From an uncultured Lentisphaerota bacterium (GTDB lineage: Bacteria; Verrucomicrobiota; Kiritimatiellia; RFP12; UBA1067), in the NCBI GenBank assembly GCA_900320225.1, contig ONRL01000001.1, positions 1,325 to 65,324 of the forward strand: 64,000 bases of DNA, in the 5' to 3' direction. This document shows positions 12,601 to 57,970 of the stretch, one piece after another (the first letter of the stretch is position 1; each line of letters opens with the position of its first letter). The notes below the pieces were generated by a model. It was not told where the DNA came from and ran no database searches. It saw only the letters and a list, made by a program, of their open reading frames with translations. A program made the position numbers and the translations under genes.

Positions 12601-12628
12601 ATTGGTGCGACTGACTGGGATCGAACCA
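12601..12628. repeat. attL core: orphan 3' fragment of tRNA-Arg (28-bp exact direct repeat)
   Basis: ATTGGTGCGACTGACTGGGATCGAACCA is identical to 57943..57970. It corresponds to the CCA, acceptor and T-arm of the tRNA-Arg gene. Confidence 0.9.
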
Positions 12629-37066: not shown

Positions 37067-37075
37067 GAGAACGCC

Positions 37076-40000
37076 ATGCCGCTTTGGAAGAACACGCAGC
37101 ACGCCTTCATCGCCGGGCAGCTCGACACGCATGTCATGGGCCGGCAGGACATGGACAAATATTCCCACGGCGCGACGCTCCTGAAGAACTTCCTCGTGAA
37201 GCGTCAGGGCTGCATTTCCAAGCGCAGGGGCACCGACCTCACGGCGGACCTCTCCGGACTTCTCGGAACGACCTACGACGGCACGCCCATCTCGCCGGAC
37301 AAGATGCGCCTCGTGCCCGTCACCAACGGCGACGACGGGCGATACGTCATCCTCTCCGGCGGCATCGGATTCGTCGCAGACCGTAGGGGAGTCATGCTCG
37401 ACAAGGGTGAATTCGCGCGTTCCATCGGCCCTTACGTGGCCGTCGACGCGGACGGGAAGGCCATCGTCTCCGCGCGCTCAGACTCGCGTGCGTCGAACGA
37501 GACTCCTGTGGACGTGATCCACGCGATCAGCGCGGGCAACTATTCTGTCGCGCGATACGGCAACACATACGATTCGAACGGCTACATGACGGCCAACGCG
37601 CTCCAGAACGCAATCGCCGCCGCGCAGGAGGGAGACACCATCCGCCTGCACGGCGACCTGCTGCTCGAGCAGAAGCGAACCGGCGAAAACACGCTCGCGC
37701 AGAACATCGTCACCGTGGACAAGTCCCTGACGATCGACCTGTACGGTTACAAGGTGACGGTGTACGGACGATACGCCCACATCGCCGTCACGTCGCCGGA
37801 CATCGACCTGACGATCACGTCCACTCGGCCCTGCGCCCGTTTCGTCACGCTCTCGGACGCAAACTCGTATTGGCTGAAGTTCACGCCGTACACGAGCGGT
37901 AACACGAAGTCCGGCACCCTGACGCTTGACGGAGACATCTCATGGCAGATGATGGGCGGCGGCTCCAACTTTGGCGGGATTTACGCGGACCACGCCGCCC
38001 ACGTGGTCGTGAACTCCGGGAGGTTCGAGTTCGACGACGTAAAGGGAGGATACGTGTTCGCGCTCAAAAACGGCGGCGACGTGACGATAAACGGCGGTAC
38101 GTTCAGGATCGGAAACTCCACCGTCACTGAGGACGACACGAAATACATCTTCTGGTGCGCGTCCGCCGGCGCCGTCACGGTCAACGGCGGGACGTTCGTC
38201 AACGAGAACACGAACTCTGGCTCGTCGTCCATCTTCTACGCCGCGACCGTCGCGATCTTCGGCGGAAGGTTCTCCGCGCAGTCGGCCGCGCAATATTCCA
38301 GTTCCGGAACGCTCCGCGTGTTCCGCGGGGAATTCGCGCACAACAACATCAACGGAACCGCCCTGGACGCGACGGGCTACTATCTCGGCTCGCGCCAGCC
38401 CGCGGCCACTACGATCGCTTTCGACGGCACCGACGTCACCGCGACGGCCAGCGCGTGGACCTTGTCTGATTCCGGGAACCTGACGATCTCGTGGCTCTCC
38501 ACACAGCATGTGTGGCGCCTGCTCGGCACGATGGCCGGAGGCGGGAACGTGAACGAGACAACGTCCGGCAATCCGGCCGACACCGAGGTCGTTTTCCCGG
38601 AGCACGGCGTGACTGCCACGCGGTCGTGGACGATCTCGGGGGACGGCTCGTGGGCGCTCACGTTCGACATCGCCACGACTTACTGGCGGCTCGTCGGAGC
38701 TGAGCCGAACGACACGCAGCCGAACGGGGCGGGTTACTACGGCGTCAGGATGATCGGCGAGAACGACTACGCTTACGCGCACACGACGGGATCCATCCCG
38801 TACCGCATCGCGATCCCGTACGCGGACGCGGACCTGGCCGACCTCTGCATCCGCCAGTCCGGCGACACTCTTTTCATCGCGCACCGCGACTACCCTCCTG
38901 CCAAAGTGTCGTTCGACGCCGACGGCCGCGCGACTTACGAGGAACTGCGATTCGACAACACTTCACTTCTGCCGCCGGTCGTCGACTCGGCGGAGATGGC
39001 CGGACAGGACCCGGTCGAAACCGAATGGCCGGACGAGTTCCCGCGGCTGAAGGAACAGAGCGACAGCAACGTGGACTGCGTGAACGTCGGCTCTGACGGA
39101 ACCGACGAATACTGGTACACCGCGGGGTGCCCGTCATGGCTCACCGAGAACCAGAAAAAGGAGCTCGTCGCGTTCAGGAAGGCCTGCGCCGCGCTCGGGA
39201 CGGTGACGGACGCGGGACACAGCGCCAACGTGGCTGACGGGAACGACGGATCTTGCAGCTACGCCTGCTCGTACACATGCACGTCTGTCAGCGTCGACCG
39301 TGCGATGGGCGTAAAAACGACAACCGTCTCCGTTAAGTCCTTCACCAAATCCGTGACGAAAGAGGAGACGACGGAATTCACGGACGGGCTTGCGACTGGT
39401 ACGTGCCAGCGGACGATCACCACGGACGGAAGCGCGGAGAACTCCGCGAGCGCGTCGTCCGTCCTCGTGTCTCGCACCGTCAGGTACGTCGCGACCTACG
39501 TCAAGGACGGCATGGAGTCGCGCCCGTCCGTTCCTGTCGCCGTGGACTACTTCATGCCATGGGCCAACAACGCCGTCGTGAACATCGTCGTGTCAAAGGG
39601 CGACAACGACGACGAGCCTGAATACTACAATGTCTACAAGGACAACGGGAACGGCTACGGACTGATCGGATCCGTGGGAGTAGAGGCGTCGTCCGGTGCG
39701 TTCTCCGCAACGGTTGACGAATATGCGACGAACATTCCGGACAACTCGGCGGACACGCTTTCGGCTCCCTGCCTCATGGACTACCTCGACGGCAGGGGCG
39801 TCGGACTGGAGACCGTGATGAGGAAGATCTGCTCGGGATCGAACGCGACATTCTCCACCTCGCCGGCCGGTGACGCCTGCCTCATCTGCCCGCCTTCGCG
39901 CCAGTCCGAAGGCATGACCATCAAATTCTCCAAGGGGACGAGGTTCAAGCGGATGCGCGTCTACCTCGACGGGCGCATCTACGACAAGGTGACAGGCACG

Positions 40001-41728
40001 GCGTACCTCGTGCCGTCCGCGCCGGAGATCAAGCTTTACGTCACATACCGTAAGGCCGACGGAACGTCCGCGCCCATGGCGTTCGGATCCGGCGCCTACA
40101 TCCACAAGTCCGTGTCGATGAACTACGTCGCGCGTGGCGGCTACCTCGGCACCGTAGCACAAGGTGCTTACGGCGACTGGCTCCTCCTTCCGATGAGATC
40201 GACCACGCTCCCGAACGGAGACGCGCTGTACATGCGCCTTGTCGGCCCGGGACACAACACCGAATACATGAACGCGCATCCGCGCTACGTAGATTTCGAC
40301 ATTTCGTCCGGAATCTCTTCTGCCGATTCATTCTCCTGCATCGACTCCGTGACCATGAAGTTCGACGGCAGCCAGTATTTCGCGTGGTCCGGGAACCGCC
40401 AGACGGGCGTCGTGCGCGCCTTGAAGTTCTTCTCCTCGTCGTCCGGCGGGGTAGACGGCGGGAACATGCAGGACGACTACATCAACCCAGACATGACGGT
40501 CACGCCGCCAGTCATCGACGACCCACACTTCGCCGCCGCCGGCGAATATCCAGGTTGCGTGGGCATCTACGAACAACGGCTCGTCTTCGCTTCCACGCGC
40601 GGCGCGCCGTCCACAATCTGGATGAGCCGCATCGCCGACCTCTACAACTTCACGGCCCACGAGTCGATCCGGGAGGACGACGCGCTCGAGCTTACCCTGG
40701 CCGCGACGGAGTTCCCGAACATCAACCACCTCGTCATGGGCCGCGACCTGATGCTGTTCGGCGACGGCGGCGAATGGTTGATCGCGCCCGTCTCGGGGAA
40801 CGCCCTCACCTACAAGACCGCATCCGCGAAGCTCCAGAGCATGGTCGGCTCCGACCGCACCCTCCAGCCGCTCCAGCTCGCGGACGAGACGCTGTTCGCG
40901 GAGCGCGGCGGCACGTGCCTACGCTCGATCAACTACAACTACACCTCCGACAGCTACCAGTCGGAAGACCTCTCCGTGATCGCGCAGTCGATCTTCCGCG
41001 CGAACCCGATCGTCTCGATGGCCTACAAGCAGCATCCGGACTCCATCGTCGAGTGCGTGCTCGCGGACGGGCGCGTCGCGACGCTAGTCTACATGAAGGA
41101 GCAGGAAGTCGCCGCCTGGAGCGTGCAGGAGCTCGGCGGCGGGTGGAAGGCCAAGGAGATCGTCACGCCCAAGTGCATCATCGACGGCACCACCGAGATG
41201 ATGATGCTCGTCGAGAAGGACGGCGTGTACCAGCTCTGGAAGGTCCGAAACGACTCCGACGCGCCGACGGCCGCGAACCAGGTGATACTGGACGGCATGC
41301 ACATCGAGACGTCATCCGAGCCGACCGGGACGGAAGAAGTCGGCGTCGCGCTCGGTGACGGAACCTACGCGGTCGGCTGGCCAATCGTGTCCGAGATGGT
41401 CACGGTCCGGCCAGAACCAGAACGTGCCCAGACCATGCAGATGGAGATCAAGAACGCGACCGAATCGGAGATCCGAGTCATCGGCGCCAGCACGTTCAAG
41501 GTCAAGCCATACGCGATCGACACGGGCTGGCGCGACGTCTCGCTGCCGGTCGTCCGCGACGGATCCGCCGTGACGCTCGCGGAGAAGGACTGCAAGAAGC
41601 TCATGACCGGCACGAACAACCGCGACGGGCGCATCCACGTCCGCCACGCCGAGCCGTGGCCGCTCACGATCCTCTCCATCAGCAACACCTACCAGGTCGA
41701 GTACGAGAACGGAGGAAAGGAGCAGTGA
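37076..41728 (+). CDS. tail nozzle / tail tubular protein B (T7 gp12-like) with very large insertion
   Basis: The N-terminus FIAGQLDTHVMGRQDMDKYSHGATLLKNFLVKRQGCISKRRG and the C-terminal block YPGCVGIYEQRLVFASTRGAPSTIWMSRIADLYNF...LMLFGDGGEW are nozzle-like. In between are about 900 aa, including right-handed beta-helix-like repeats (VTINGGTF, VTVNGGTF, AIFGGRF). Confidence 0.55.
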   Translation: MPLWKNTQHAFIAGQLDTHVMGRQDMDKYSHGATLLKNFLVKRQGCISKRRGTDLTADLSGLLGTTYDGTPISPDKMRLVPVTNGDDGRYVILSGGIGFVADRRGVMLDKGEFARSIGPYVAVDADGKAIVSARSDSRASNETPVDVIHAISAGNYSVARYGNTYDSNGYMTANALQNAIAAAQEGDTIRLHGDLLLEQKRTGENTLAQNIVTVDKSLTIDLYGYKVTVYGRYAHIAVTSPDIDLTITSTRPCARFVTLSDANSYWLKFTPYTSGNTKSGTLTLDGDISWQMMGGGSNFGGIYADHAAHVVVNSGRFEFDDVKGGYVFALKNGGDVTINGGTFRIGNSTVTEDDTKYIFWCASAGAVTVNGGTFVNENTNSGSSSIFYAATVAIFGGRFSAQSAAQYSSSGTLRVFRGEFAHNNINGTALDATGYYLGSRQPAATTIAFDGTDVTATASAWTLSDSGNLTISWLSTQHVWRLLGTMAGGGNVNETTSGNPADTEVVFPEHGVTATRSWTISGDGSWALTFDIATTYWRLVGAEPNDTQPNGAGYYGVRMIGENDYAYAHTTGSIPYRIAIPYADADLADLCIRQSGDTLFIAHRDYPPAKVSFDADGRATYEELRFDNTSLLPPVVDSAEMAGQDPVETEWPDEFPRLKEQSDSNVDCVNVGSDGTDEYWYTAGCPSWLTENQKKELVAFRKACAALGTVTDAGHSANVADGNDGSCSYACSYTCTSVSVDRAMGVKTTTVSVKSFTKSVTKEETTEFTDGLATGTCQRTITTDGSAENSASASSVLVSRTVRYVATYVKDGMESRPSVPVAVDYFMPWANNAVVNIVVSKGDNDDEPEYYNVYKDNGNGYGLIGSVGVEASSGAFSATVDEYATNIPDNSADTLSAPCLMDYLDGRGVGLETVMRKICSGSNATFSTSPAGDACLICPPSRQSEGMTIKFSKGTRFKRMRVYLDGRIYDKVTGTAYLVPSAPEIKLYVTYRKADGTSAPMAFGSGAYIHKSVSMNYVARGGYLGTVAQGAYGDWLLLPMRSTTLPNGDALYMRLVGPGHNTEYMNAHPRYVDFDISSGISSADSFSCIDSVTMKFDGSQYFAWSGNRQTGVVRALKFFSSSSGGVDGGNMQDDYINPDMTVTPPVIDDPHFAAAGEYPGCVGIYEQRLVFASTRGAPSTIWMSRIADLYNFTAHESIREDDALELTLAATEFPNINHLVMGRDLMLFGDGGEWLIAPVSGNALTYKTASAKLQSMVGSDRTLQPLQLADETLFAERGGTCLRSINYNYTSDSYQSEDLSVIAQSIFRANPIVSMAYKQHPDSIVECVLADGRVATLVYMKEQEVAAWSVQELGGGWKAKEIVTPKCIIDGTTEMMMLVEKDGVYQLWKVRNDSDAPTAANQVILDGMHIETSSEPTGTEEVGVALGDGTYAVGWPIVSEMVTVRPEPERAQTMQMEIKNATESEIRVIGASTFKVKPYAIDTGWRDVSLPVVRDGSAVTLAEKDCKKLMTGTNNRDGRIHVRHAEPWPLTILSISNTYQVEYENGGKEQ

Positions 41729-45169: not shown

Positions 45170-45171
45170 CG

Positions 45172-48100
45172 ATGCCGAGACCGAATACCCCAACCCGATG
45201 GGACGCCATTCCCGCATTGACGGAAGAGGAGCGCGTCGCGTCGGCGCTCAGCGTCAGCCCGGCCACGGCCACCGACGAGGAGAGCCGCGCGGCCGCGCAG
45301 ACCCTTTCCAGGCAGGTGCTGATCGCGCACCAGATCGCGCAGATGCCGGATGAATCCTTCAAGACCGAGGCGGAGAAATACGCCGCAGCGTCCAAAATCG
45401 TCGAGACCATGACCGGCGCGAAGGACCTCGACGGCCGCCTCTGGAATGGGGGCAAGCCGTTCAAGACCGGCAAAGAATACCTGATGAGCGTCCGCGACGT
45501 GCTGACCCGTGGCATGACGGCGGCGGCCGATCCCGACCTCCAGGCGTGGCTGGCCATGTCGGACGAGGAGAAGGACGCGAAACTCGAGCGCGAGCAGGGC
45601 TTCCTCTCGTCCTTAGCCGAGGGCGTGGGCGACGCGACGTCGCAAGTCGCCGCGCATTACGGCATCAACACTGAGCTCTCGGAGAGCGAATATGAAGCGG
45701 CTCCGGAGGACGTGCGCAACGCGAGCTTCATGCTGTCGCGCGACGACACGCCGCAGGCCGAGCGGGACAAGTACGGCGCGACGATCCGCGAGTGGCGCAC
45801 GGGAGAATGGCGGAAACTCCAGCGCCGCAGCGAGTACGAGGCGAAGCTGCGCCGCAAGAACGCGCTCCTCTACCTTCCGGACATGATCAAGTCGCTGAAG
45901 ACCGATGAGGCCAAGACGCTCGCGGGCGAACTTGCACAGGACCCTTCCGCGATTCCGGACAACTGGGAGGCACGCCTGAGGCGCCTGCCCACGCACGACA
46001 TCGAGACGCTGGCGCAGATTCGCGGCATGACGCGCGAGCAGACCGAGGGCGGCTTCTTCAACTGGCTCGGCGACATGGGCATCGGCGTATACAACGCCGC
46101 GCGCGGACTCGTCAACGGGCCGTACCAACAGCTCGAGAAGTACGGCGCGATGGCCATGGGGTTCGACGAAAACCTCATCAACGAGACGATCCGCCGCAAG
46201 CACGCGCTCTGGAGCGCGTACGCGGGCTGGAGCTCGCCCGTCGCGCCGCTCTCCGACCAGCACGGGGCCGTCGCGAACTTCACGATCGGCCTCGCGTCCG
46301 CCGTTCCGTTCATCGCCTCGATGAAGCTGAAGGCGCTCGGCTACGTCGCGTGCGCGGGCGAGATGATGTCAGAGGCCGACGCCCAGGCCGCCGCAGCCGG
46401 CGTCGACACGACGAGCTTAGAGTACAACGCGATCAACCTCGTCGCAGGCGGCACCTACGCCTACATGCTGAAGGCCGTGAGCCCGAAGTTCTTCGGCGCG
46501 TCCGCGAACGGCGCGGCCGAGGAGATGGCCCTGCGCACCGCGTTCATGAAGGGCGTGCTGAGCGGCGTCGCGAAGCTCGACACCGTCAAGATCGCGTCCC
46601 AGCGCACGGCCGCCGGCTCGCTGATGATGGCCATGCAGCAGTCGATCGCAGCCGTGAACAACGACCTGCACCTCGGCGGAGACGCCTGGAACGACGCCGC
46701 GAAGAGTTTCACGGAGACGTTCGTCTCGTCCATCCCGGACATGCTCGCATTCACGGGATACGGGATCCTCGAAGGCCACGCCCGCGCGTCCGGCGGGTTG
46801 CCGAAGATGTTCACGGCCGAGGGACGCGCCAACCGCTCGCAGAACCTCCGCGAGGCCGTGGAGAACGCCTTCGCCGTCAGGACGGCGATCGTCGGGAATG
46901 AGCAGATAGACAATCTGCGTAAGGCAACCATTTTGAATCAACTCTCCGCCATGAGCCGTGCATGGACAGAGGGGGGCGAAGCTGGACTGAGAGGCCTTGG
47001 CCTGAAGCCTGCGGAGATAACCGAGGCGAAGGATTACTTCGAAGCTGAATGCAAGCAGCTTGGCGCGGCAGAGAAGCTGGGGGAACTTGACTCCATCCTC
47101 GACGAGCAGGGGGCGAGGGGAGAATTCGATCCGTACGTGTTCGCGGAGCGAAACGAGGCCGCAAGACGCTACGATGAACTGGCGCGCGACTACTCTGTCA
47201 AAACAGACCGCCTGCACAAGAGGATCATCGAGAAGATGCTCGATGAGAAAGGCACGCTGCGCGACATCGCGTCCGTGCGCAACGTCTGGGCGCAAGGCCA
47301 CGCCGTCGGTGCGGGAATGGCCGACGGCACCGACGCCGGCGCCGCCGCGCTCGTCAAGGCCGGCTTTACACCGGAAGACGCCGCGATTCTCTCCCGCGAG
47401 TTCGGCGCGGAGCGCAGGAACATGTACTCGCCCGCCGCGACCGAGGCATTGCGCGAGATGTACACGCGCTCCACGCGCGGGATGGTGGAGGCGCACGCCG
47501 CGCTCGCGAGCGCGTTCAAGGGCAAGGTGCGCACCGAGAACGGGCGCGTGCTGATCGACCTCCCGATGCCGGACGGCGGCACGGGCACGCTCGCCGTCGA
47601 GACGGAAGATCTGTCGCAGAGATTCTACGGCGCGGCGGGAAAAGACCCGGAGCTGGCGCGCCAGATCGAAAGCATTGTCACGCGCCTCGGCGGCCATGTG
47701 ACAGCTGACGCCTGGATCAACATGACGGACGCCGAGCGGCGCCGGATCGTAAAGGAATTCCATCTTCAGGACGAAGGCTACTTCATGCTGACGGATCCGG
47801 CCGACCCGTCGCTGCATGTCGATTCCGGCGACGCCGACGCCGTGATGGGCGTGATCCGTCTCGACCCGACCGCAGACCCCGGTGTAGGCTTCCACGAGTC
47901 GATGCACGGTTTCCTGCGTTTCTGCCAGGAGACGGGCTTCTTCGACGAGGCCGACGTCAAATGGCTCACGGACACCTACGGCACGCCGCAGAACGCGAAG
48001 GAGCAGTTGAACGAGGAGAGCGCGGCCGACGGCTTCCGCCAGTACCTCGCGAAGCGCATGGCGGGCTCGTTCGCCGAGGAGCCTGGCCCGTTCCGCAAGC

Positions 48101-51100
48101 TGTTCGGCCTCATCAGCCGCATCCGCCACCTGCGCGACAGCCGTGCGGCGACGGAACGCCTCGCCGCGAACGCCGAGGAGGCGCTGTACGACGCGTTCCT
48201 CGCGGGCAAGTACCAGCACGTTCGCGACCTCACTTTCGCCGAACCCGTCGCGCCCAAGGCCGAGACGGGCACCGGCACCGAAGCGCCGCAGACCGGCGCG
48301 CCGACGCCAGCGCCGACACCGGCGCCGACTCCGGCACCGGCACCCGCACCGACTCCAGCGCCGACGCCCGCACCGGCGCCCGCGCCCGCGCCGCGCGTCG
48401 TCTCGTTCGAGGCGCTGACGCCGACCGGCGGAAAGAAGGTCAAGGGACACTACGAGATCGTCCCGCTCGCGTCGCTGCTGCACTCCAACATGGCCGGCTA
48501 CCCGATGGAGCTCCAGCAGCGCGACCGCAAGGGCAACAAGGGCGAGGAGCAGACGCGCGAGGAGCACATCGCAAACTTCGAGCCGGGCTACCTGCTGGCG
48601 GATCCGAAGACAGACTCCGGCGCGATGGTCGTGGCACGGCGTCCTGGACCGGACGGCAAGCCGCAGCTCGTCGTCGTCTCGGGGAACGGGCGCACGATGG
48701 TCCTGGAGGAGATGGCCAAGCGCAACCTCTACGACCGCTACCGCAACCGCATGAAGGAATGGGCGAAGGAGAACGGCGTCGAGAACACCGTCGCGGACGC
48801 AGACAATCCCGTCCTCGTGCGCGTGGTGGACGAGCTCGGCGGCGCCACGCTGAAGGAGCTGGCCGACCTCTCGAACACAAACGCGATCCAGCAGATGAAC
48901 GAGGAAGAGCAGGCCCGCGCCGACGCCGACCTCGTGCGTTCGCTCGACCTCGCGAAGCTCTACAAGCCGAACATGGACGGCTCCGCGAACATGGCCGCCG
49001 GAGCGAGCGACGAGTTCTTCCGCGAATTCGTGCGCGCGACGGGCGACACCAGCCTGCTCAATTCCGACGGCACCTTCACCGAAGCCCTGCGCATGAGGGC
49101 GCGGCGCGCACTTCTCGCAATCGCATGCGGACAGGGCGAGCGCGGGCGCGACGTCGTGAAGAAGCTCGTCGAGGACACCGATGCGCTCGGCATCGACCGC
49201 CAGAAGGACACGGCCGCCGCGATCGCGCCGCACGTCGCGGCCATCGAGACGCGTCCGGAATACGCCATCGGCCCGGACGTGAGCCGCGCGTTCGCGGACT
49301 ACATCGAGTTCCGCGAGAACCGCGACACGGGCAAGAAATGGGGTACGCTCGATGAGTACCTGAAGCAGGGCGACATGCTCGACCAGCGCAGCGAGATAGC
49401 CGAGGCGGTCATGCGGCTCCTGGACGATCCGAAGAGCGCGCCCGTGCTGGCCGAGACGGTGCGCCTCTACGTCGAAGCCGCCAAGGGCGAAACGGACGGC
49501 CTCTTCGGCGCTGCCCGGACACGCGCCGAGATATGGCGCGACGCCGCAAAGGCCGTTAACGTTGAAGCCGCAGAAAAGCGCTACTCGATCGCGGGCAAGG
49601 TGGCCGCCTCAAACATGGGCATCAAGGGCGCGGGCGACGCCGAGGCCATGGAGAAGGCCGGCAAGGATCGCGAGGAGATATGGCGCACGACCGGATGGTG
49701 GCGCGGCAAGGACGGCCGGTGGCGCTTTGAGCTGCCGTCCGTGAAGATGAAGAGCGAAAAGGAGATCGAGGCTGCGCTACGGGAGGGAATAAACGGCCTT
49801 CGCGGCGGAAGCAGCGAAACGACGCTTGAAAAAGTGCTGGACGCTCCGGCGCTGTTCGAGGCCTATCCGCGGCTTAAGAAAACAAAGATCGTATTCTCTC
49901 CGGAACACGACGACAAGACCGGCGGATGGTACGACGCCGGAAAGAACGAGATCGTCCTGCTCGATACGGGTATAAAGGATCTAAGGCATCGGCCGAAGCA
50001 CGAACAGGACCTCTACGATACTTACCAGCAGGTAATAAACTCGGACGAGTTCCTTCAGAAGCGGTTCAGCAACATGGATGCGTTCGGCATCAAACACGGA
50101 ACGGCCGAGGAAGAGAGGGCGCTGGCGAAAGACTGGATCGCGAAATTTGACAAGAGCATTCAGGACGAAAACGCCGCAATAGTCAGAGATCTTGTAAAAG
50201 ATCGTGGGCCGTACAGCGCATTCGGCAAGATCGTCCACGAGGTGCAACATTCCGTGCAATACATGGAGACATTCGCAAAGGGCGGAAACCCTGAATCGGC
50301 AGCCGAATTCGTCAAGAACATGAAGCGCAAGCAGCGAATATGGGCTTACAGACTCGAGGTCGAGGAGACCGCGAAAGAGCTTGGCACGACGAATCCCTAC
50401 GAGATAGAAAGGGCAATCCTCGAGAAGCTGGGAGTGACGAGCCGTGAGCAAATAGCGGGGCTTGAAGCAGATGGATGGATCCCCGACAGGGAGGGAAGAG
50501 ACAAGGGATATAATCTGTTTGCCAGGGGATACGACAAGGAAGGCTACGAAGAAGCCTACAACGAATACCTGGGCGAAATGAGGAAGACCGGCAGGGCCGG
50601 ATGGTGGGAAGGCTCTCCACGAGAGCTTTACAACCGTCTTGCCGGCGAGGTTGAGGCGCGGAACGCATCGCGCCGCGAAGCCATGTCGCCGGAGGAGCGC
50701 GCGGCCACGCCGCCCTGGGAAACCGAGGACGTGCCAGCCGACCGCCAGATCGTCAGGTACTCCGTGACGGCGCAGAGAGTCACGCCCGAAGAGGACGCCG
50801 CGTATGCGGACGCCGTGAAGCGCGGCGACATGGAGACCGTGCGGCGCATGGAGCGCGAAGTTTACGAGCGCATGGGCTACTCGGACGACTCCAGCTACCA
50901 GGGAACGAGCGCGTTCAACGGCGCGGCTCCAAGCAGCAACGCCTACTTCGAGACCAAGGCGGAGCGCATCGAAGCGGCGAAGAACGGCGAGATGGAGGAC
51001 ACTACGACGCTCGGCGACTTCCGCGACGGCATCGACGTCAACAATCTTCAGTTTATCGTGTTTGATCCACGTTCGGAGCGCAACGCCGATCCGATGCGCC

Positions 51101-54100
51101 AGGAGGCAATACGGAACATTCGCGATGTTCTCGACGGCGGCAAAGACACGATAACGATGTACCGCAGCGTCCCGGCCGACGTGAAGGAGGGACAATTCCG
51201 GAACGGCGACTGGATCACGCCGAGCCGCGCCTACGCGGAGGACAACGCCCGCATCCACGGATGGGGCAAGAAGTTCCGCGTCATCGAGCAGGAAGTTTCG
51301 GTCGAAGACGTCTGGTGGGACGGCAACGACATCGCGGAATGGGGCTTCGACGACGGTAAGGGCAGCGTGTACAAGAACACGCGGGCGAACCGCAAGCTGC
51401 TCGGTCCGACCTACGACAACGCGGGCAACCTGATACCGCTCTCGAAGCGCTTCAACGACTGGCTCATGGACGCGCGCTACTCCATCGCGGGCCGTGTCGC
51501 CGCGTCGAATATGGGCATCAAGGGCGCGGGTGAGGCCGAGGCCATGGAGAAGGCTGGCAAGGATCGCGAGGAGATCTGGCGCACGACCGGATGGTGGCGC
51601 GGCACCGATGGTAAATGGCGCGTGGAGATCCCGGACTTCACGCTAAAGATGGACACGATTGGCAGGGAAGCCAACGAAAGCGACCCGGATTACTTCGTGC
51701 GCAAGCGGAAGTTGCCAGACATCATCACCGACACCCGTCTCTTTGAGGCGTACCCGGAACTGAAGAAGATCACGGTCGAGACGCCGCATCACGATACATT
51801 CGGCGGGGCCAGCGTCCTGGGTGACTACAACGGCAAGAGGCGCATCCGACTGAACACATGGGCGATGATGTACGATCCGGAACAGGTTCGCAGTACGCTC
51901 GCGCATGAGATACAGCACGCGATCCAGTACATCGAGGGTTTTGCCAAGGGCGGCAACCAAGGCCAGTTCAAGGAGGCAGACCCGTGGGCACTGCGCCGAA
52001 AGGCGAAGGCGGAGCGCAGGCGCGGCAACGAGACCGAAGCCGCACGTCTGGAAGCCGAGGCCGAGGAGATTGAGGAAAATGCGCTCGAAGGACATGTGAT
52101 CGAAAATGGCGAGGTGTACGAGGACACGTTCGAGGCTTACCAGTCGCTCGCGGGCGAGACCGAATCACGCAACGTCGAGAAGCGCCTTGCCATGACGCCG
52201 GAAGAGCGCGCGGCCACGCCCCCCTGGGCGACTGAGGACGTGCCCGCCGACCGCCAGATCGTCAGGTTCTCCCTCGTCGGCAAGCGTCCGGACGGGATCG
52301 AAGTGTTCAGCACGCGCTCCGTGGACGACATGACCAACGCTCAGCGGCGCGACGAGTTCCTACGTAAACTTAAGGAGGATTATAAGGGACGCACGGCGCG
52401 TTTCGTTGCGGACGGCAAGACCTACTATGCGACATTCGGCGATGATGATGTCGGCAAACTCGTATACGGAGACAATAAAACATCTCCTCGAAACAAGAAG
52501 GTAAAAGATCGAATCGGCGCGGCCGGTGATATATTTGATCTCGTCGAGAACTCTCGTTTCAAGGGACCTGGGAAAGAGCGCGGAAAGAAAACGGATGCTC
52601 ACAGGAACGTTGAGAGATGGGATTATTTCGTCAAGACCGTCCAGATCGACGATGGCATGTACGACGTGCGAATCGAAGTGCGGAGTAAACCCAGCAGGAC
52701 GGGTCAGTTGAAGGACGAATTCGTCTACAACGTGTTCTTGAACCACAGCAAGAAAAAAGCCGACCTTCGGTTCCTATCATGGGCAGAAGCCTTAGCAGGC
52801 GATGCCTCCGTCCGTAACGCGAACGTCACGGCTCTCAGACCCGAAAAGTCGGATGCGGAAAGTGTACCAAATCCCTCCGACGAAATCAAGGCCGATCCGG
52901 AGTCTTTTGCGCGGCGCTCGATCGTCTCGCGCGTAATCGACGGCGACGCCGAGGAACGCGAATCCGCGCTCGTGGCGTTCGTCGCCGAGCGCGCGCTCAG
53001 GCACGGCCCGAAGCCGAACGCCTTCAAGACCATCGCGCGGCTCGGGCTGGAGATGGGGCTCAAGACCGTGAACGCATCCAATATCGTCAAGAAAGGCGAG
53101 GCTCTTGCCGACCGCGTGCGCGGCACCGTCATCGAGAAGGCGATCCGCAAGGGCGACGTCGCCACGGCCACGGCCCTTCTCGCCCGCGAAAGCGACATCG
53201 ACCGTCTCGTCGCCGGCGCAGCCGGTCAGGGCGGCCAGCTCGTCCGCGCAGGCGAGGGCAAGATCAAGAGCTTCCTCGACCGCGAGATCGAAAAGCATAT
53301 CCGTTCGTTCAACGCCGCGTCGCTCGCGGACGTGGAGCGCGACACCGGCATCGACATCGCGGGCGAGATCCTGGCCAACAGCCCGGAGAGGTTTGATCCG
53401 AAGGGATCGGCGAAGCGCGAGGAAGCCAAGGCCGAAGCCGGCGAGGCTGGAGGCGAGGAAGGTGCCGTGCCCGGCGCCGGCGCGCCCGACGAGGGCAACA
53501 TCACCGACTTCGAGCGTGCCCGCCGCGAGCGCGTGCGCAAGGAGGCCGAGGAGCGCGTCGCCAAGATGATCGCCACGGCCAAGCAGCGCGCGGAAGAGGC
53601 CGAGAATCAACGCGCGGAATGGGAGGCGCAGCGCGAAGAGCGCAAGCGCCAGGCCGAAGCCGCAGCGGCGGCCGGCGAAGCCGGCGAGGCCGGCGAGGCC
53701 GGTGGCGGCGCCGGTGGTGGTGGCGAAGGCGGCGGCGTCGGTGGCGAGACCGTCACGCCGGAGCGTCCGAAACTCTCCACGTTCGCCGACTTCAAGTCGC
53801 CCGAGGAGTTCGCCGCGTTCTTCCGCGTCTGGGCCGAGGAGCGCTACAAGAAGGAACACGGCGCATCCACACTCGGCAAGCACGAGGAGAAGCGGCTCTT
53901 CCCGGAGTTCTACCGCAAGGCCGTCGTGCGCGAGCTGCAAGACCTGGCCGACAAGCTCCTGCCGCCCAAGGGCGCGCGCGCGACCGTCAACCGCTGGCTC
54001 GGCGAGATCCAGCCCGGCGTGAAGCCCGACACCCTCGAGCGCATTTCGGCCGACATCTTCAAGTACATCAACCGCAACGCGATCCGCGAGAGCCGCACGG

Positions 54101-56709
54101 CGACGATCCAGAAGTTCCGGAACGGACTCCAGGAGTTCATCAAGGGCCCGCAGTTCGACGACCTGAAGCTGGACTCCGACCGCAAGGTGACCGGCTGGGT
54201 GGAGGAGGCCGCGCGCTACATCCGGCGCGTGTGCAACCTCTCGATTCAGTCGATCAACGGCGAGCCGTCGCAGCTGGAAAAGGAGCGCGCCGAGCTCCAG
54301 GCCATTCTCGACCGCCGTTCGCAGGTGTACGACGAGGAAGGAAAGAACTCGGCCGACGCGCCGCTGTTCGACATGGAGACGCGCCGCGCGCTCGCCAAGC
54401 TCCAGCTCCTGGAGAAGTACGGCGCGATGAAACGATACATGCCCGGCCAGATCGCCGACCTCGCGAACGAGGCCATGACCTGGCTGCGCGACGAAGCTGG
54501 CAAGCTCGAGGACGCCTGGAAGAGCGCCCGCGAGACCGAGGAGTCGATCCGTTCCGCGCTCACAGGCGGCATCGTCGGCCCGAACGGGCAGAAATACCAG
54601 CGCGCCGAGGGCGTCAAGGGCTGGGCGGAACGTCTGTTCGACTCCATGAACGGCATGATCCGTCTCCGGCTCCAGCACCTCGTACGGTTCTCCGATTCCG
54701 CGAACCAGCAAAAGGCACGGGACGCCATCAACCGCGTCATCGTCATGCTCGGCGACGGCGAGGTGGCGTTCACGCGGCACACGCAGAACGACCGCAGGGC
54801 GTTCGAGCAGGCGCTCACGCGGATATTCGCCACGCCCGACGGCAAGGGCTTCGACCGCCGCGCGATGGCCGACTGGCTCAACCGCATGACCGAGGCGATC
54901 CCGGCCGACCTCTCGCGCCAGCTCTCCAAGCAGGGCTACGGCGACAGCATGACCTACGGGCAGATGCTCCAGCTGCTCGTCTCACTCGAGCAGAGATCCT
55001 ATTCCGAGGCGATTGCGGCGAACAAGCGCGAGAACCAGGCCGATCTCATCCGCACGTTCGAGACCGTCGGCCCGGACGGCCGGCGCGAGCGTGTGCTGAC
55101 CGACAAGGACATCCTCTTCATCGACTGGCTGCGCTCGTTCTACGAGGCGAAGCGCACCCAGCTGTCCGAGGTGACGAAGCGCATGACCGGCCTGCCGGTT
55201 GATTCTCCCGATCCGCTCTACTGTCCCGTGAAGATGTACATGGGCGACCGCGCGCGCGGCATGCACGTGGACGACACCAAGGCATGGGATCCGATCGGCG
55301 CCGTGTTCTCGCGCCGCGTGGAGACGCTGCGCGACTTCGACGAGTCGGCGTCCATCCTGGGCCAGTTCTTCGACCGCTCCGCAGAGGCCGCCAAGCTCGC
55401 GGCATGGGCCGAACGCGGCTCGATCATTCGCGGCGTGTTCACGAACGCGAGCGTCCAGGAGTCGATCCGGCGCGCGTTCGGCGGCGGCGAGCTCACGAAG
55501 ATCCTCAAACAGCTCGAGGAGACGTTCAACGGCGGCGAGAACATCAGGAAATCGCCCGGCGAGATCGCAGCCGCCGACAAGGCGATGAACTGGATGACCT
55601 ACCTCTCGCTCGGCTACAACCCGCTCTCAGCGATGAAGCAGACCACCTCGGTCTGGGTCTGGGCGAACGCGCTGCCGGGTGGATTCAAGGACCTCTGGCG
55701 CTACATGACCGACGTGGACATGGCCACGATCAAGCACATCAAGGAGAGCGAAGAGTACAAGGTGCGCTACGGCGTCGAGATCGGCAGCGGCCAGGACGTC
55801 GCCACGCGCGCGCTGAATGACGATCCGTCCGAGAACCCGGTCAAGAAGTTCTTCAAGAAGACCTCGATGGGATTGCTCCGGAAAGGCGACTTCCTTCCGG
55901 GTGGCTGGATTGCGCAGGGGCTCTTCCGCGACCTCTACAACCGGCACCTGAGAGAGGGCATGGATCCGCAGGCGGCCGACAAGCTCGCCATGACCGAGAC
56001 GTTCAACATGCTCGAAGAGACGCAGCAGTCGGGCCGCACGTACAACACGGCCGCACTCGCGCGCGAACACGGGCGCCTCGGACGGCTCCTGGTGCAGTTC
56101 GCCACCTCGCCGTTGCAGCAGCTCCAGTACGAGACGCAGGCCCTGCGCGAAGTGTGGGATCTCAAGCGCTACAAACCGACGACTCCTGACGCCGACTTCG
56201 AGAAGCGGTACTCAGATGCGAAAGGAAAGCTCGTGCGTGCTGCCGTGATAAACCATGTCCTGCTCCCGGCCGCGCTCCACGCCGTCACAAACCTCTACCG
56301 CTACGCGATGGGCTACGATCCGGAATGGGAACAGGAAGGCTGGCACTGGACGATGCTCCGCGACATAGTGCTCGGCCAGTTCTCGCGCGTGTTCTTTATC
56401 GGCGCGATTTCCACCGTGACATGGGACACGCTCATCACGGGCAAGCCCATGCGCGAAGTGCCGGCGCTGATTCCGGCCGAGGGCGTGGTGAAGCTCACCG
56501 GCAACATGATGGTCACGGCGCGCGACATCGCGAAGCTGGACTACGAGAAGGTGCAGAAAGACCTGGACCGGCTCTTGAAATCGACCTCGATCACGCGCAC
56601 GCCCTATGACGCCTTGCGCCTGCTCTCGGGCAGAGCCTACGCCGAGCGCGAGGAGCGCCGCGAGAAACGCCGCCAGAAAGAGGAGAAGAAAGCGGCTAAG
56701 CAGAAGTAG
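45172..56709 (+). CDS. giant polyvalent virion/ejection protein (~3845 aa)
   Basis: A single uninterrupted 11.5-kb ORF. GGAGGAG lies 6 nt upstream of ATG 45172 (the track start GTG 45166 is also possible). It contains three HExxH sites, an (A/T)P linker, a ParB-like block, an ART-like block, low-complexity tracts and hydrophobic helices. It is the last gene of the virion module. Confidence 0.85.
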   Translation: MPRPNTPTRWDAIPALTEEERVASALSVSPATATDEESRAAAQTLSRQVLIAHQIAQMPDESFKTEAEKYAAASKIVETMTGAKDLDGRLWNGGKPFKTGKEYLMSVRDVLTRGMTAAADPDLQAWLAMSDEEKDAKLEREQGFLSSLAEGVGDATSQVAAHYGINTELSESEYEAAPEDVRNASFMLSRDDTPQAERDKYGATIREWRTGEWRKLQRRSEYEAKLRRKNALLYLPDMIKSLKTDEAKTLAGELAQDPSAIPDNWEARLRRLPTHDIETLAQIRGMTREQTEGGFFNWLGDMGIGVYNAARGLVNGPYQQLEKYGAMAMGFDENLINETIRRKHALWSAYAGWSSPVAPLSDQHGAVANFTIGLASAVPFIASMKLKALGYVACAGEMMSEADAQAAAAGVDTTSLEYNAINLVAGGTYAYMLKAVSPKFFGASANGAAEEMALRTAFMKGVLSGVAKLDTVKIASQRTAAGSLMMAMQQSIAAVNNDLHLGGDAWNDAAKSFTETFVSSIPDMLAFTGYGILEGHARASGGLPKMFTAEGRANRSQNLREAVENAFAVRTAIVGNEQIDNLRKATILNQLSAMSRAWTEGGEAGLRGLGLKPAEITEAKDYFEAECKQLGAAEKLGELDSILDEQGARGEFDPYVFAERNEAARRYDELARDYSVKTDRLHKRIIEKMLDEKGTLRDIASVRNVWAQGHAVGAGMADGTDAGAAALVKAGFTPEDAAILSREFGAERRNMYSPAATEALREMYTRSTRGMVEAHAALASAFKGKVRTENGRVLIDLPMPDGGTGTLAVETEDLSQRFYGAAGKDPELARQIESIVTRLGGHVTADAWINMTDAERRRIVKEFHLQDEGYFMLTDPADPSLHVDSGDADAVMGVIRLDPTADPGVGFHESMHGFLRFCQETGFFDEADVKWLTDTYGTPQNAKEQLNEESAADGFRQYLAKRMAGSFAEEPGPFRKLFGLISRIRHLRDSRAATERLAANAEEALYDAFLAGKYQHVRDLTFAEPVAPKAETGTGTEAPQTGAPTPAPTPAPTPAPAPAPTPAPTPAPAPAPAPRVVSFEALTPTGGKKVKGHYEIVPLASLLHSNMAGYPMELQQRDRKGNKGEEQTREEHIANFEPGYLLADPKTDSGAMVVARRPGPDGKPQLVVVSGNGRTMVLEEMAKRNLYDRYRNRMKEWAKENGVENTVADADNPVLVRVVDELGGATLKELADLSNTNAIQQMNEEEQARADADLVRSLDLAKLYKPNMDGSANMAAGASDEFFREFVRATGDTSLLNSDGTFTEALRMRARRALLAIACGQGERGRDVVKKLVEDTDALGIDRQKDTAAAIAPHVAAIETRPEYAIGPDVSRAFADYIEFRENRDTGKKWGTLDEYLKQGDMLDQRSEIAEAVMRLLDDPKSAPVLAETVRLYVEAAKGETDGLFGAARTRAEIWRDAAKAVNVEAAEKRYSIAGKVAASNMGIKGAGDAEAMEKAGKDREEIWRTTGWWRGKDGRWRFELPSVKMKSEKEIEAALREGINGLRGGSSETTLEKVLDAPALFEAYPRLKKTKIVFSPEHDDKTGGWYDAGKNEIVLLDTGIKDLRHRPKHEQDLYDTYQQVINSDEFLQKRFSNMDAFGIKHGTAEEERALAKDWIAKFDKSIQDENAAIVRDLVKDRGPYSAFGKIVHEVQHSVQYMETFAKGGNPESAAEFVKNMKRKQRIWAYRLEVEETAKELGTTNPYEIERAILEKLGVTSREQIAGLEADGWIPDREGRDKGYNLFARGYDKEGYEEAYNEYLGEMRKTGRAGWWEGSPRELYNRLAGEVEARNASRREAMSPEERAATPPWETEDVPADRQIVRYSVTAQRVTPEEDAAYADAVKRGDMETVRRMEREVYERMGYSDDSSYQGTSAFNGAAPSSNAYFETKAERIEAAKNGEMEDTTTLGDFRDGIDVNNLQFIVFDPRSERNADPMRQEAIRNIRDVLDGGKDTITMYRSVPADVKEGQFRNGDWITPSRAYAEDNARIHGWGKKFRVIEQEVSVEDVWWDGNDIAEWGFDDGKGSVYKNTRANRKLLGPTYDNAGNLIPLSKRFNDWLMDARYSIAGRVAASNMGIKGAGEAEAMEKAGKDREEIWRTTGWWRGTDGKWRVEIPDFTLKMDTIGREANESDPDYFVRKRKLPDIITDTRLFEAYPELKKITVETPHHDTFGGASVLGDYNGKRRIRLNTWAMMYDPEQVRSTLAHEIQHAIQYIEGFAKGGNQGQFKEADPWALRRKAKAERRRGNETEAARLEAEAEEIEENALEGHVIENGEVYEDTFEAYQSLAGETESRNVEKRLAMTPEERAATPPWATEDVPADRQIVRFSLVGKRPDGIEVFSTRSVDDMTNAQRRDEFLRKLKEDYKGRTARFVADGKTYYATFGDDDVGKLVYGDNKTSPRNKKVKDRIGAAGDIFDLVENSRFKGPGKERGKKTDAHRNVERWDYFVKTVQIDDGMYDVRIEVRSKPSRTGQLKDEFVYNVFLNHSKKKADLRFLSWAEALAGDASVRNANVTALRPEKSDAESVPNPSDEIKADPESFARRSIVSRVIDGDAEERESALVAFVAERALRHGPKPNAFKTIARLGLEMGLKTVNASNIVKKGEALADRVRGTVIEKAIRKGDVATATALLARESDIDRLVAGAAGQGGQLVRAGEGKIKSFLDREIEKHIRSFNAASLADVERDTGIDIAGEILANSPERFDPKGSAKREEAKAEAGEAGGEEGAVPGAGAPDEGNITDFERARRERVRKEAEERVAKMIATAKQRAEEAENQRAEWEAQREERKRQAEAAAAAGEAGEAGEAGGGAGGGGEGGGVGGETVTPERPKLSTFADFKSPEEFAAFFRVWAEERYKKEHGASTLGKHEEKRLFPEFYRKAVVRELQDLADKLLPPKGARATVNRWLGEIQPGVKPDTLERISADIFKYINRNAIRESRTATIQKFRNGLQEFIKGPQFDDLKLDSDRKVTGWVEEAARYIRRVCNLSIQSINGEPSQLEKERAELQAILDRRSQVYDEEGKNSADAPLFDMETRRALAKLQLLEKYGAMKRYMPGQIADLANEAMTWLRDEAGKLEDAWKSARETEESIRSALTGGIVGPNGQKYQRAEGVKGWAERLFDSMNGMIRLRLQHLVRFSDSANQQKARDAINRVIVMLGDGEVAFTRHTQNDRRAFEQALTRIFATPDGKGFDRRAMADWLNRMTEAIPADLSRQLSKQGYGDSMTYGQMLQLLVSLEQRSYSEAIAANKRENQADLIRTFETVGPDGRRERVLTDKDILFIDWLRSFYEAKRTQLSEVTKRMTGLPVDSPDPLYCPVKMYMGDRARGMHVDDTKAWDPIGAVFSRRVETLRDFDESASILGQFFDRSAEAAKLAAWAERGSIIRGVFTNASVQESIRRAFGGGELTKILKQLEETFNGGENIRKSPGEIAAADKAMNWMTYLSLGYNPLSAMKQTTSVWVWANALPGGFKDLWRYMTDVDMATIKHIKESEEYKVRYGVEIGSGQDVATRALNDDPSENPVKKFFKKTSMGLLRKGDFLPGGWIAQGLFRDLYNRHLREGMDPQAADKLAMTETFNMLEETQQSGRTYNTAALAREHGRLGRLLVQFATSPLQQLQYETQALREVWDLKRYKPTTPDADFEKRYSDAKGKLVRAAVINHVLLPAALHAVTNLYRYAMGYDPEWEQEGWHWTMLRDIVLGQFSRVFFIGAISTVTWDTLITGKPMREVPALIPAEGVVKLTGNMMVTARDIAKLDYEKVQKDLDRLLKSTSITRTPYDALRLLSGRAYAEREERREKRRQKEEKKAAKQK
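47893..47907 (+). other. HExxH site 1 (HESMH) in giant protein
   Basis: VGFHESMHGFLRF is a zincin-like metallopeptidase motif. The surrounding fold was not verified. Confidence 0.35.
48298..48393 (+). repeat. coding low-complexity (Ala/Thr/Pro)n linker
   Basis: It encodes APTPAPTPAPTPAPAPAPTPAPTPAPAPAPAP, from the imperfect repeat unit CCGACGCCAGCGCCGACACCGGCG. Confidence 0.8.
48448..48930 (+). other. ParB/Srx-fold nuclease-like block in giant protein
   Basis: HYEIVPLASLLHSN...QQRDR...LVVVSGNGRTMVL resembles the ParB N-terminal domain pattern (conserved strand, an R-rich motif, a G-x-x-R motif). Confidence 0.35.
49579..50763 (+). repeat. intragenic duplicated module copy 1 (HEVQH metallopeptidase-like)
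   Basis: It starts RYSIAGKVAASNMGIKGAGDAEAMEKAGKDREEIWRTTGWWRG. HEVQHSVQYMETFAKGGN is at 50236.., and it ends ERAATPPWETEDVPADRQIVRYS. The DNA core 49615..49708 is 90/94 identical to 51511..51604. Confidence 0.8.
51000..51370 (+). other. ART-like block between the duplicated modules
   Basis: TMYRSVPADVKEGQFRNGDWITPSRAYAEDNARIHGWGKKFRVIEQEV aligns by eye with VVYRGSPYDPLAQEAGKGVIKPEAYFTADPEYAKRYTGNGGKVGAYYLNI in the second giant protein. This is a possible R / S-T / E ADP-ribosyltransferase-type arrangement. Confidence 0.3.
51475..52272 (+). repeat. intragenic duplicated module copy 2 (HEIQH metallopeptidase-like)
   Basis: It starts RYSIAGRVAASNMGIKGAGEAEAMEKAGKDREEIWRTTGWWRG. HEIQHAIQYIEGFAKGGN is at 51904.., and it ends ERAATPPWATEDVPADRQIVRFS. 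Confidence 0.8.
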
Positions 56710-57817
56710 ACTCCAGTGCCTGACGGATCTCCTCCGTCTTGTCGGCGTGGTCATATCGCTGCACGGTCGCGTCCTGCGTCCATCCGCCGAGCCGCTTTGC
56801 GAGGTCGTTGCTCACGCCGGCCTCGGCCAGGCGTGTCCTGAAGGTATGCCGCCAGCTGTGGAAGGTGATCGTCGGATCGTCCACGCCGGCCGCCTTCAGG
56901 ATCGCGGCGAAGGTACAGTCTTCCGGATCGCCGGGATAGACTTTCGCAAACTCCGGAAGCACATACTTCCGGCCCTTCACGAACAGACCCTTCAGCGCGT
57001 CGCGCAGCACGGCCACCATCGGAACCTCGACCTCGATGTTGTAGCCCTGAGTCTTGATCGGCTTCACGCGGATCACGCCCCTCTCGAAGTCTACTTTGCT
57101 CCATTCCAGGAACACGACGTCATGCTTCCGGAGCCCGGTCCACCGTGCGACGAGACACGCCTCATACCAATGCGGCACGGCGCTCGCCTTCGCGGCCGCC
57201 AGCACGGCCTTCTCCTGGGCGCGCGTAAACGCGGCGTGACGCTGGCCGTCGCGCACGGTCGGCCGGAGGTCCTTCCACGGATTGCGGACGCCATACAGGG
57301 CCTCGGCGGCCTTCCAGATCGTGGATAGATTCCCGATGTATTCTTTCCGGCTTTTGTCCTTCAGCTTCGCCTTGTGCTTTTTGTCCTTCGGCGAGCTCTT
57401 CTTCTTCAGGTGCTCGGCATACGCCATCGCACACTCGAACGTCACCTCCTCCACGGTCGTGACCGGGAACTCGGTTTTCGTCCACTCGATGAAATCCTCG
57501 AGGTTCTTCTTCCGCTGCTTCACGAGCCGTTCGCCCGGCTTGCGATCGCGCATCGACATGAACCGCTCATACGTCGCCCACAGCTGAGCGATCGGCAGCC
57601 CGGCTCCCTCGCGCTCCCTGGTGAAGACGGCGTCGAGAATGGATTTCAATTTCATCTCGGATATCTTGCCCTTAATCGACAGGTGCATGGACTCCTCGAT
57701 CGACCGCGCATCCTTAATGGAAGTTGTGCCGGTAGACTGGCGGATGAATTTCCCTGGTCTTTTGGGGTCACGGAATGAAACCCACCAGTATTTAGAACCG
57801 TTATTTTTGTATAGCAT
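56696..57817 (-). CDS. int: tyrosine-type site-specific integrase
   Basis: 373 aa. ARWTGLR (Arg), HSWRHTF (H-x-x-R) and QRYDH (Tyr) are in the right order and spacing. It is adjacent to attR/tRNA, and its 3' end overlaps the giant gene by 14 nt (convergent). Confidence 0.9.
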   Translation of the reverse strand: MLYKNNGSKYWWVSFRDPKRPGKFIRQSTGTTSIKDARSIEESMHLSIKGKISEMKLKSILDAVFTREREGAGLPIAQLWATYERFMSMRDRKPGERLVKQRKKNLEDFIEWTKTEFPVTTVEEVTFECAMAYAEHLKKKSSPKDKKHKAKLKDKSRKEYIGNLSTIWKAAEALYGVRNPWKDLRPTVRDGQRHAAFTRAQEKAVLAAAKASAVPHWYEACLVARWTGLRKHDVVFLEWSKVDFERGVIRVKPIKTQGYNIEVEVPMVAVLRDALKGLFVKGRKYVLPEFAKVYPGDPEDCTFAAILKAAGVDDPTITFHSWRHTFRTRLAEAGVSNDLAKRLGGWTQDATVQRYDHADKTEEIRQALESTSA

Positions 57818-57936: not shown

Positions 57937-57942
57937 TATCTT

Positions 57943-57970
57943 ATTGGTGCGACTGACTGGGATCGAACCA
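57943..57970. repeat. attR core (within intact tRNA-Arg)
   Basis: It is identical over 28 bp to 12601..12628. Confidence 0.9.

Follow-up and report, generated by a model that had tools for sequence, protein, structure and literature searches.

A giant gene at the end of a prophage in an uncultured Lentisphaerota bacterium probably encodes an internal virion (ejection) protein of an active temperate podovirus, which occupies the slot of the internal virion protein called D (IVP-D) and has been enlarged into a carrier of polyvalent effectors; we give this reading a probability of about 0.65. The gene lies in a 64,000-nt stretch of contig ONRL01000001.1 (assembly GCA_900320225.1), here called the window, and runs on the plus strand from an ATG at 45172 to 56709, stop codon included. 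When its 3,845-residue product, hereafter the giant protein, was compared by BLASTP with full-length relatives, it fell into three parts, a constant N block, a variable centre and a constant C block (Table 1, where percentages given for relatives are identities). The N and C blocks were under constraint in the relatives, and the central cassettes differed from one relative to the next.

The giant gene was a single intact gene, translationally coupled to the gene before it, and closed an operon of tail and internal-virion genes. Its frame contained no internal stop codon, a ribosome-binding site (GGAGGAG) was located 5 nt upstream of the ATG, and the TGA of the upstream 716-residue gene ended 2 nt ahead of that ATG. 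An alternative GTG start at 45166 would give 3,847 residues; an independent gene call on another contig (L006) chose the ATG and 3,845 residues. The continuity of the open reading frame did not depend on any single assembly, because the exact 3,845-residue product was called on at least seven contigs from other samples and L006 was 100% identical to the window across 22 kb. The GC content at third codon positions (GC3) was 0.84 over the whole frame, and the gene took up 11,538 of the 45,342 bp of the prophage (25%). An earlier reading of the sequence alone, hereafter the original prediction, had proposed one uninterrupted frame of about 3845 residues that fills a quarter of the phage genome, and both statements held.

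The surrounding genes, as judged from Pfam and PHROG matches and gene calls, were laid out on the T7 plan of a podovirus. The 172- and 262-residue genes ahead of the 716-residue gene matched phrog_308 (5e-7) and phrog_418 (8e-9), both of which are annotated as internal virion protein. The giant gene followed the slots of tubular tail protein B, IVP-A/B and IVP-C, which is the position of IVP-D in the synteny scheme of Hardies et al. 2016 (PMC4819975). Relatives kept the order of a gene of about 700 residues, the giant gene and the integrase. The gene order and the two PHROG matches agreed with the placement made originally, namely as the gene that closes the virion module in a temperate podovirus-like prophage, after three internal-virion-type genes and in the slot of gp16.

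The prophage was 45,342 bp long, inserted in tRNA-Arg(CCG) and flanked by a 28-bp direct repeat. On a 90,766-bp scaffold of approximately two genome lengths (L011, ENA ERZ28613036 scaffold_423), positions 15769-15799 joined window 42172-57970 straight to window 12597-14367 via a single 28-bp core, and this join represents attP in phage DNA that is circular or concatemeric. Contig L006 (ENA ERZ27280420 k141_70067) was 45,483 bp long, by our own arithmetic 45,342 + 141, as expected for a circular k141 contig. The attP junction in L011 and the length of L006, one genome plus k, therefore showed that the phage excises and is an active temperate podovirus. Its host is probably a Kiritimatiellae-like bacterium, uncultured and apparently from gut or rumen, a name borne by one relative of the giant protein and by one relative of a flanking hydrolase.

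Polyvalent proteins were described by Iyer et al. 2017 (Iyer, Burroughs, Anand, de Souza and Aravind; PMC5512222), who included DdrB-ParB, LPD23 and LPD3 among their domains, linked DdrB-ParB domains to virion genes, and predicted that the proteins are injected with the DNA and processed by their own peptidase. The giant protein carried unrelated signature domains of this kind above curated cut-offs and had virion genes as neighbours within an att-bounded prophage. In the N block, a ParB domain containing GNGR was matched by PF18763 (DdrB-ParB, E 2e-17 to 2e-18) and by phrog_2299, and the same position held a ParB domain in 35 relatives. LPD23 (PF18838) occurred twice in the centre, at 3.9e-28 for the pair and at 3e-15 and 4e-15 singly, and the second copy comprised residues 2104-2158 (converted by hand from the segment match). 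LPD3 (PF18798) was matched at residues 2389-2506 with 28.3-28.9 bits, just above the curated cut-off of 27. Together with three conserved HExxH modules, these domains bore out the polyvalent-protein reading of the original prediction. Its ParB/Srx-like block and its 32-residue (A/T)P linker were recovered, and its low-GC module lay where it had been placed; that module, whose function had been given as unknown, is LPD3 by the Pfam match.

The three HExxH motifs that had been picked out by eye, HESMH at 47893 (residue 908), HEVQH and HEIQH, were all present. As they were 95-99% conserved in relatives, they are motifs of a catalytic type and not chance matches. For the first module, 73 related segments kept H908, E909 and H912 at 99% and E949 at 96%. 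Across approximately 38 LPD23-linked modules, H2245, E2246, Q2248, H2249 and Q2252 were 95-97% conserved and E2255 87%. E949 and E2255 are candidate third ligands. The first module had no Pfam match and the HEIQH module gave a SprT-like match of 16-19 bits, below its cut-off. The modules are termed zincin-like because none of the three reached the Pfam model MPTase-PolyVal (PF18818).

GC3 was 0.87-0.91 in the constant blocks and lower in three of the four modules that make up the centre (0.72, 0.80 and 0.63), which suggests that the centre was acquired recently. Module a was homologous to residues 2152-2374 of gp60 of the Pseudomonas phage H66 (29% identity, E 8e-20). Modules a and b also formed direct DNA repeats, 49578-49753 with 51474-51649 (83%) and 50623-50763 with 52132-52272 (76%), which flank the cassette between them and are possible recombination substrates for its gain or loss. 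This cassette (residues 1865-2101) consisted of an adaptor helix, a conserved core (YRxVP...W[IV][TS]PS...R[VI]I...EWG.DDG) and an IPLSxRFN tail.

An ART-like block had been proposed at residues 1865-2101, and this identity failed in Pfam, profile-profile and fold searches. No Pfam match was obtained even at E up to 5, and hhalign against 14 ART-PolyVal cores from relatives gave a Prob of 0.2%. The best PDB match in Foldseek had an E of 0.74 with ART entries only at E 9, a fold test that is weak by itself at the AF2 pLDDT of 67, and the EQE triplet was not invariant, being REA in one homologue. In relatives, the same cassette flanks (a helix TPEEDAAYxDAVxRGD... and a tail ...DDAGNxIPLSxRFN) held genuine ART-PolyVal domains of 73-84 bits. 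The original prediction was thus partly right about the slot, which often appears to hold an ART in relatives, and the core found here is a different, unnamed domain. A word-indexed search with this core returned only four short nameless fragments. The tail was also considered as the PLxRFG motif of H66 gp60 and rejected, as the H66 motif occurs in a different, C-terminal context; an NCBIfam scan of the whole giant protein gave two chance-level matches only and no PLxRFG.

The contig that encodes the relative P0013 (45.9 kb) shared its gene order and its integrase with this prophage. The centre of P0013 was approximately 300 residues long compared to 1,100 in the giant protein, about 800 fewer. 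The centres of other relatives held a Zeta-toxin or kinase domain, a PRTase-like domain, or ART-PolyVal. Among 50,697 deposited phage genomes, megablast with the gene and tblastn with the N-terminal 1,000 and C-terminal 1,245 residues found nothing. When tblastn was run with the central part against deposited phages, 119 records were matched, mainly F116-like temperate podoviruses, and only the central modules matched. A scan of GTDB gave a single partial locus (L001, in the rumen metagenome-assembled genome RUG11823) and a scan of IMG/VR gave one relative (L002).

An exhaustive profile search with the C-terminal region returned at least 507 representative clusters, 195 of them below 1e-30. 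Among the 98 listed proteins of at least 2,000 residues, the C block was always C-terminal, the match ending a median of 3 residues from the C-terminus, and their length had a median of 3,572 and a maximum of 6,531 residues. A length of 3,845 residues is therefore typical of this family. An AF2 model of residues 2866-3845, built with 28 diverse sequences, was all-helical (pLDDT 81, pTM 0.76), as is the "extensively alpha-helical" IVP-D. A search of BFVD with this model gave 87 matches at E 1e-3 or better, the best at about 3e-20. The best matches (TM 0.55-0.60 over roughly 1,000 columns, 12-16% identity) came from uncultured phages, in each case from the final piece of a giant protein with a name such as ART-PolyVal-like, LPD-containing, MuF-C or nuclease. 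The C block is thus a C-terminal module that is common among phage polyvalent proteins yet has no name.

The C block had no match in Pfam or PHROG, residues 1-880 had none in either, and segments of the N and C blocks had none in PHROGs at E up to 1. Sequence searches of the PDB with the C-block profile and with the whole protein returned nothing significant. Hydropathy analysis revealed one clearly hydrophobic stretch in the N-terminal region, at residues 366-395, and two more near the C-terminus, at residues 3687-3750. The hydrophobic N-terminal helices of the original prediction were accordingly reduced to one, while its C-terminal region of about 1300 residues with hydrophobic segments was retained as 1,277 residues with two such stretches, and its E/K/A/G-rich low-complexity stretch was found at residues 2741-2865.

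A short motif, R[YF]S[IVLM], recurred in the giant protein. It was present in four copies versus 0.18 expected, at residues 1470, 1862, 2102 and 2365 (nt 49579, 50755, 51475 and 52264), and all four were at module boundaries. In a set of 81 relatives longer than 2,500 residues plus the giant protein, 186 copies were counted versus 6-28 for permuted or near-miss controls. The copies lay almost all in the protein centres with a median spacing of 272 residues, the sequences that followed all differed, and ...IPLSxRFN...D[IVT] often preceded the motif. A search of the main text of Iyer et al. 2017 found no junction motif of this type.

Proteins of this kind have already been published for temperate podoviruses (Iyer 2017; H66 gp60, Hardies 2016; N4 gp50; phi24B gp47). 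The claim that such a size and combination is uncharacterised in a temperate phage did not stand, given the precedents of H66 gp60, phi24B gp47 and N4 gp50 and the typical length noted above. Like the polyvalent proteins of Iyer et al. 2017, the giant protein has many unrelated domains in one chain (DdrB-ParB, LPD23, LPD3, zincin) beside virion genes; unlike them, it has an N block and a C-terminal module of approximately 1,270 residues that are absent from the Pfam families built on that work. The nearest counterpart was H66 gp60, which has been assigned as the IVP-D homologue of its group, carrying a domain that must act inside the cell (Hardies et al. 2016). This protein of 3,787 residues is the product of the last virion gene of a temperate podovirus, contains LPD23, zincin and LPD3 in this order, and is recorded as a virion component verified by mass spectrometry. 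The giant protein shares with H66 gp60 and its F116-like (Hollowayvirus) counterparts the giant last virion gene of a temperate podovirus and the homologous LPD23-zincin followed by LPD3, and with gp60 also the hydrophobic segments near both ends. In contrast, the N and C blocks are not detectably related to gp60, which has SAM-methyltransferase-like and PLxRFG domains where the giant protein has ParB, the first zincin and the unnamed core. The gene is followed by a lysis cassette in H66 and by an integrase here.

T7 gp16 occupies the same slot, behind the tail genes and those resembling gp13/14 and gp15, and is likewise helical with hydrophobic segments near both ends; however, the giant protein has three times its length and resembles it neither in sequence or profile nor in PDB fold. 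N4 is a lytic phage, and its virion RNA polymerase gp50 (3,500 residues) resembles the giant protein in being packaged and ejected, in carrying its cargo between an N-terminal and an IVP-D-like C-terminal region, and in having a zincin domain. An N4-like virion RNA polymerase was rejected for the giant protein, which lacks an RNA polymerase module, has no Pfam, PDB-sequence or fold match to one, and has no sequence or profile similarity to gp50. In DdrB of phage P1, from the Dar antirestriction operon, a DdrB-type ParB is likewise joined to a zincin peptidase, and the protein undergoes processing and is packaged into the head, but it is much smaller and comes from a myovirus. The protein gp47 of the Stx phage phi24B (2026 preprint) has 2,811 residues and LPD domains, is abundant in virions and is a proposed ejection protein. 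By description, it is similar as an LPD-containing virion protein of a temperate podovirus with a proposed ejection role, and differs in having other LPDs (LPD1, LPD5, LPD38) and MuF-C.

By analogy with these proteins and from Iyer et al. 2017, packaging, ejection, cytoplasmic action and self-cleavage may be envisaged for the giant protein. A few copies would sit in the capsid core alongside the 172-, 262- and 716-residue proteins, and at infection they would be ejected ahead of the DNA or together with it. Incorporation and the envelope channel would be the task of the constant blocks, whose hydrophobic helices near both ends have counterparts in T7 gp16, H66 gp60 and N4 gp50. In the cytoplasm, the central cassettes and the ParB-like domain would then work against host defences during the first minutes, and the zincin modules would split the polypeptide into functional units, with the recurrent R[YF]S[IVL] junctions as possible cleavage sites.

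Several results weigh against this reading. A C-block hidden Markov model (HMM) of 158 sequences found no match in T7 gp16, T7 gp15, H66 gp60 or N4 gp50, and hhalign gave a Prob of at most 1.6%, although such a test, with single sequences set against a profile, has less sensitivity than the joined HMM-HMM chains of Hardies et al. 2016. The N block had no detectable sequence relation to the same four proteins either. The C-block model found no match among PDB folds (best E 0.08, TM below 0.2). The core proteins of T7 are present in the PDB. The only property demonstrably common to the giant protein, T7 gp16, H66 gp60 and N4 gp50 was a moderately hydrophobic region near each end. Because there was neither a sequence relation nor a PDB fold match, the assignment as IVP-D rests only on position and general properties. 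Furthermore, no lysozyme or transglycosylase domain was found in the giant protein, PADLOC returned nothing, part of the R[YF]S signal is the first strand of LPD23 itself, and zincin cleavage at the R[YF]S junctions is a conjecture.

The main rival to an ejection protein that delivers effectors is a purely structural one, which would form a conduit through the envelope. Its zincins would digest peptidoglycan or process the core, and its ParB and LPD domains would be structural or hold DNA, with no anti-defence effect. The N and C blocks, which make up about 70% of the giant protein, are constant and for the most part helical, the anti-defence role of the modules is a prediction on which PADLOC was silent, and the authors of the phi24B study proposed that the metallopeptidase of gp47 aids a conduit across the peptidoglycan. 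We nevertheless consider a purely structural protein unlikely, as the centre is swapped between close relatives, with P0013 some 800 residues shorter there and 90% identical in the C block, and relatives carry enzymes of a cytoplasmic type in the centre (ART-PolyVal, Zeta toxin or kinase, PRTase-like). Moreover, the cassettes have a foreign GC3, and such turnover characterises conflict effectors rather than structural parts.

A bolder version of the effector-carrier reading would have the N and C blocks as an ejection and packaging scaffold that is not derived from a T7 gp16-type IVP-D, and the centre as an array of cassettes with dedicated junctions (adaptor helix ... IPLSxRFN ... R[YF]S[IVL]) cut by the protein's own zincins after ejection. 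This idea is tentative and we would not bet on it; if true, the giant protein would be a self-dismantling delivery vehicle with exchangeable warheads, similar to polymorphic toxins but with the variable part in the middle.

We regard it as very improbable that the giant protein stays outside the virion, as an intracellular or secreted multi-toxin expressed late or during lysogeny from a "moron" next to the integrase. The gene is at the extreme end of the prophage, by int and attR, a common place for cargo genes, and a second polyvalent protein is encoded just outside the prophage. However, the giant gene is on the same strand as the upstream virion gene, with a ribosome-binding site and a 2-nt gap that leaves no intergenic space for a promoter. 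Its pairing with a gene of about 700 residues is kept in distant relatives and the full order of tail and internal-virion genes in the close relative P0013. In addition, the nearest characterised analogues are virion proteins by proteomics, and DdrB-ParB domains are linked to virion genes. It is scarcely credible that several genes were fused by misassembly or missed frameshifts: although all data are short-read metagenome assemblies and an assembler could be misled by direct repeats within the gene (131-176 nt, 76-91% identity), these repeats have diverged enough to be resolved, the identical product came from different samples and assemblers, GC3 was coding-like in one frame throughout, and homologues in the family as a rule have 3,000-6,500 residues.

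By bringing enzymes into the cell, giant virion proteins probably give podoviruses a main means of disarming host defences within the first minutes of infection, and to our knowledge almost none besides N4 gp50 has been studied. The giant protein and P0013 offer a clean natural comparison, the same phage backbone with or without about 800 residues of cassettes. What is added here is descriptive, namely the tripartite plan, the C-terminal family and the junction motif. The C-terminal module is a possible handle in searches for such proteins in metagenomes, and the recurrent junction motif makes the old idea of self-processing directly testable by mass spectrometry.

Table 1. Features of the prophage and of the giant gene, with positions in the window
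Feature	Position	Strand	Residues	Remarks
attL	12601..12628	.		28-bp core ATTGGTGCGACTGACTGGGATCGAACCA
Large terminase	23694-25256
T7-type portal	25702-27456			PF12236
Protease or scaffold-like gene				between portal and capsid gene in order
Capsid protein				PF20911; between protease/scaffold-like gene and tail protein in order
Tail protein	36041-37066	+	341 aa	phrog_394 and phrog_376 in region 36041..41728
Nozzle-like (tubular tail B-like) protein	37076-41728	+	1,550 aa	weak PF25675 Phage_nozzle match in region 36041..41728
172-aa gene	41725-42243	+	172 aa	internal-virion slot
262-aa gene	42228-43016	+	262 aa	internal-virion slot
716-aa gene	43019-45169	+	716 aa	no match; in relatives paired with the giant gene
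Constant N block			aa 1-1470	76% to P0013; 33-35% to P0014-P0018
N-terminal constant region	45172..47811	+	aa 1-880	76% to P0013; 33-35% to P0014-P0018
Zincin-like module 1	47809..48231	+	aa 880-1020	HESMH aa 908-912; likely third ligand E949
Ala/Pro/Thr linker, 32 residues	48298..48393	+	aa 1043-1074
DdrB-like ParB/Srx domain and conserved extension	48412..49578	+	to aa 1469	Pfam match aa 1087-1219; ends the N block
Variable centre			aa 1470-2570	content varies among relatives
Module a, LPD23 and zincin-like domain	49579..50763	+	LPD23 aa 1472-1527; HEVQH aa 1689	PF18838; GC3 0.72; RYS junction at both ends
Unnamed-core cassette	50764..51474	+	aa 1865-2101	phrog_2579 at 1.6e-13
Module b, LPD23 and zincin-like domain	51475..52272	+	HEIQH aa 2245	PF18838; paralogue of module a
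LPD3 cassette	52273..52875	+	aa 2368-2568	PF18798; lowest-GC module, GC 0.53, GC3 0.63
Constant C block			aa 2570-3845	90% to P0013; about 51% to P0014-P0018
C-block start, helical C0 segment and E/K/A/G-rich linker	52876..53766	+	C0 aa 2569-2740; linker aa 2741-2865
C-block core	53767..56706	+	aa 2866-3845	about 40 helices; hydrophobic helices aa 3687-3750
Tyrosine integrase	56696..57817	-		PF00589 8e-21, phrog_1 3e-40; convergent, 14-nt overlap with the giant frame
attR	57943..57970	.		same 28-bp core ATTGGTGCGACTGACTGGGATCGAACCA; 3' end of tRNA-Arg(CCG)
tRNA-Arg(CCG)	57945-58021	minus		3' end is the attR core

Further observations concerned the prophage and its surroundings. A 22-nt repeat, TTGTATCATATTC[T/C]GTATCATA, was found just inside both prophage ends, at 12696-12717 and 57861-57882, and the left end had an extra, weaker copy that overlaps it at 12684-12705. 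These end repeats may be arm-type binding sites of the integrase. A 23-nt motif, ACAGCAAGCGTACNACAGCAAG, occurred in four copies with 91-100% identity (14625-14647, 16777-16799, 18314-18336 and 23660-23682), all in the early and packaging region of the prophage, and is a candidate phage promoter or operator. The early region encoded a DNA polymerase III beta sliding clamp with all three Pfam clamp domains (15253-16371), a PcfJ-like protein (17800-19713) and a 950-residue protein (20233-23085) with a weak, sub-threshold match to Toprim.

The second polyvalent protein, beyond tRNA-Arg and outside the prophage, was encoded on the minus strand at 58160-63889. It had 1,909 residues with MuF_C at residues 209-284 (2.6e-9) and ART-PolyVal at residues 384-535 (4.8e-14), showed no BLASTP similarity to the giant protein and lacked the R[YF]S motif of the module junctions. 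This protein is probably part of an adjacent mobile element. The GC skew and the AT skew both switched sign near 57 kb.

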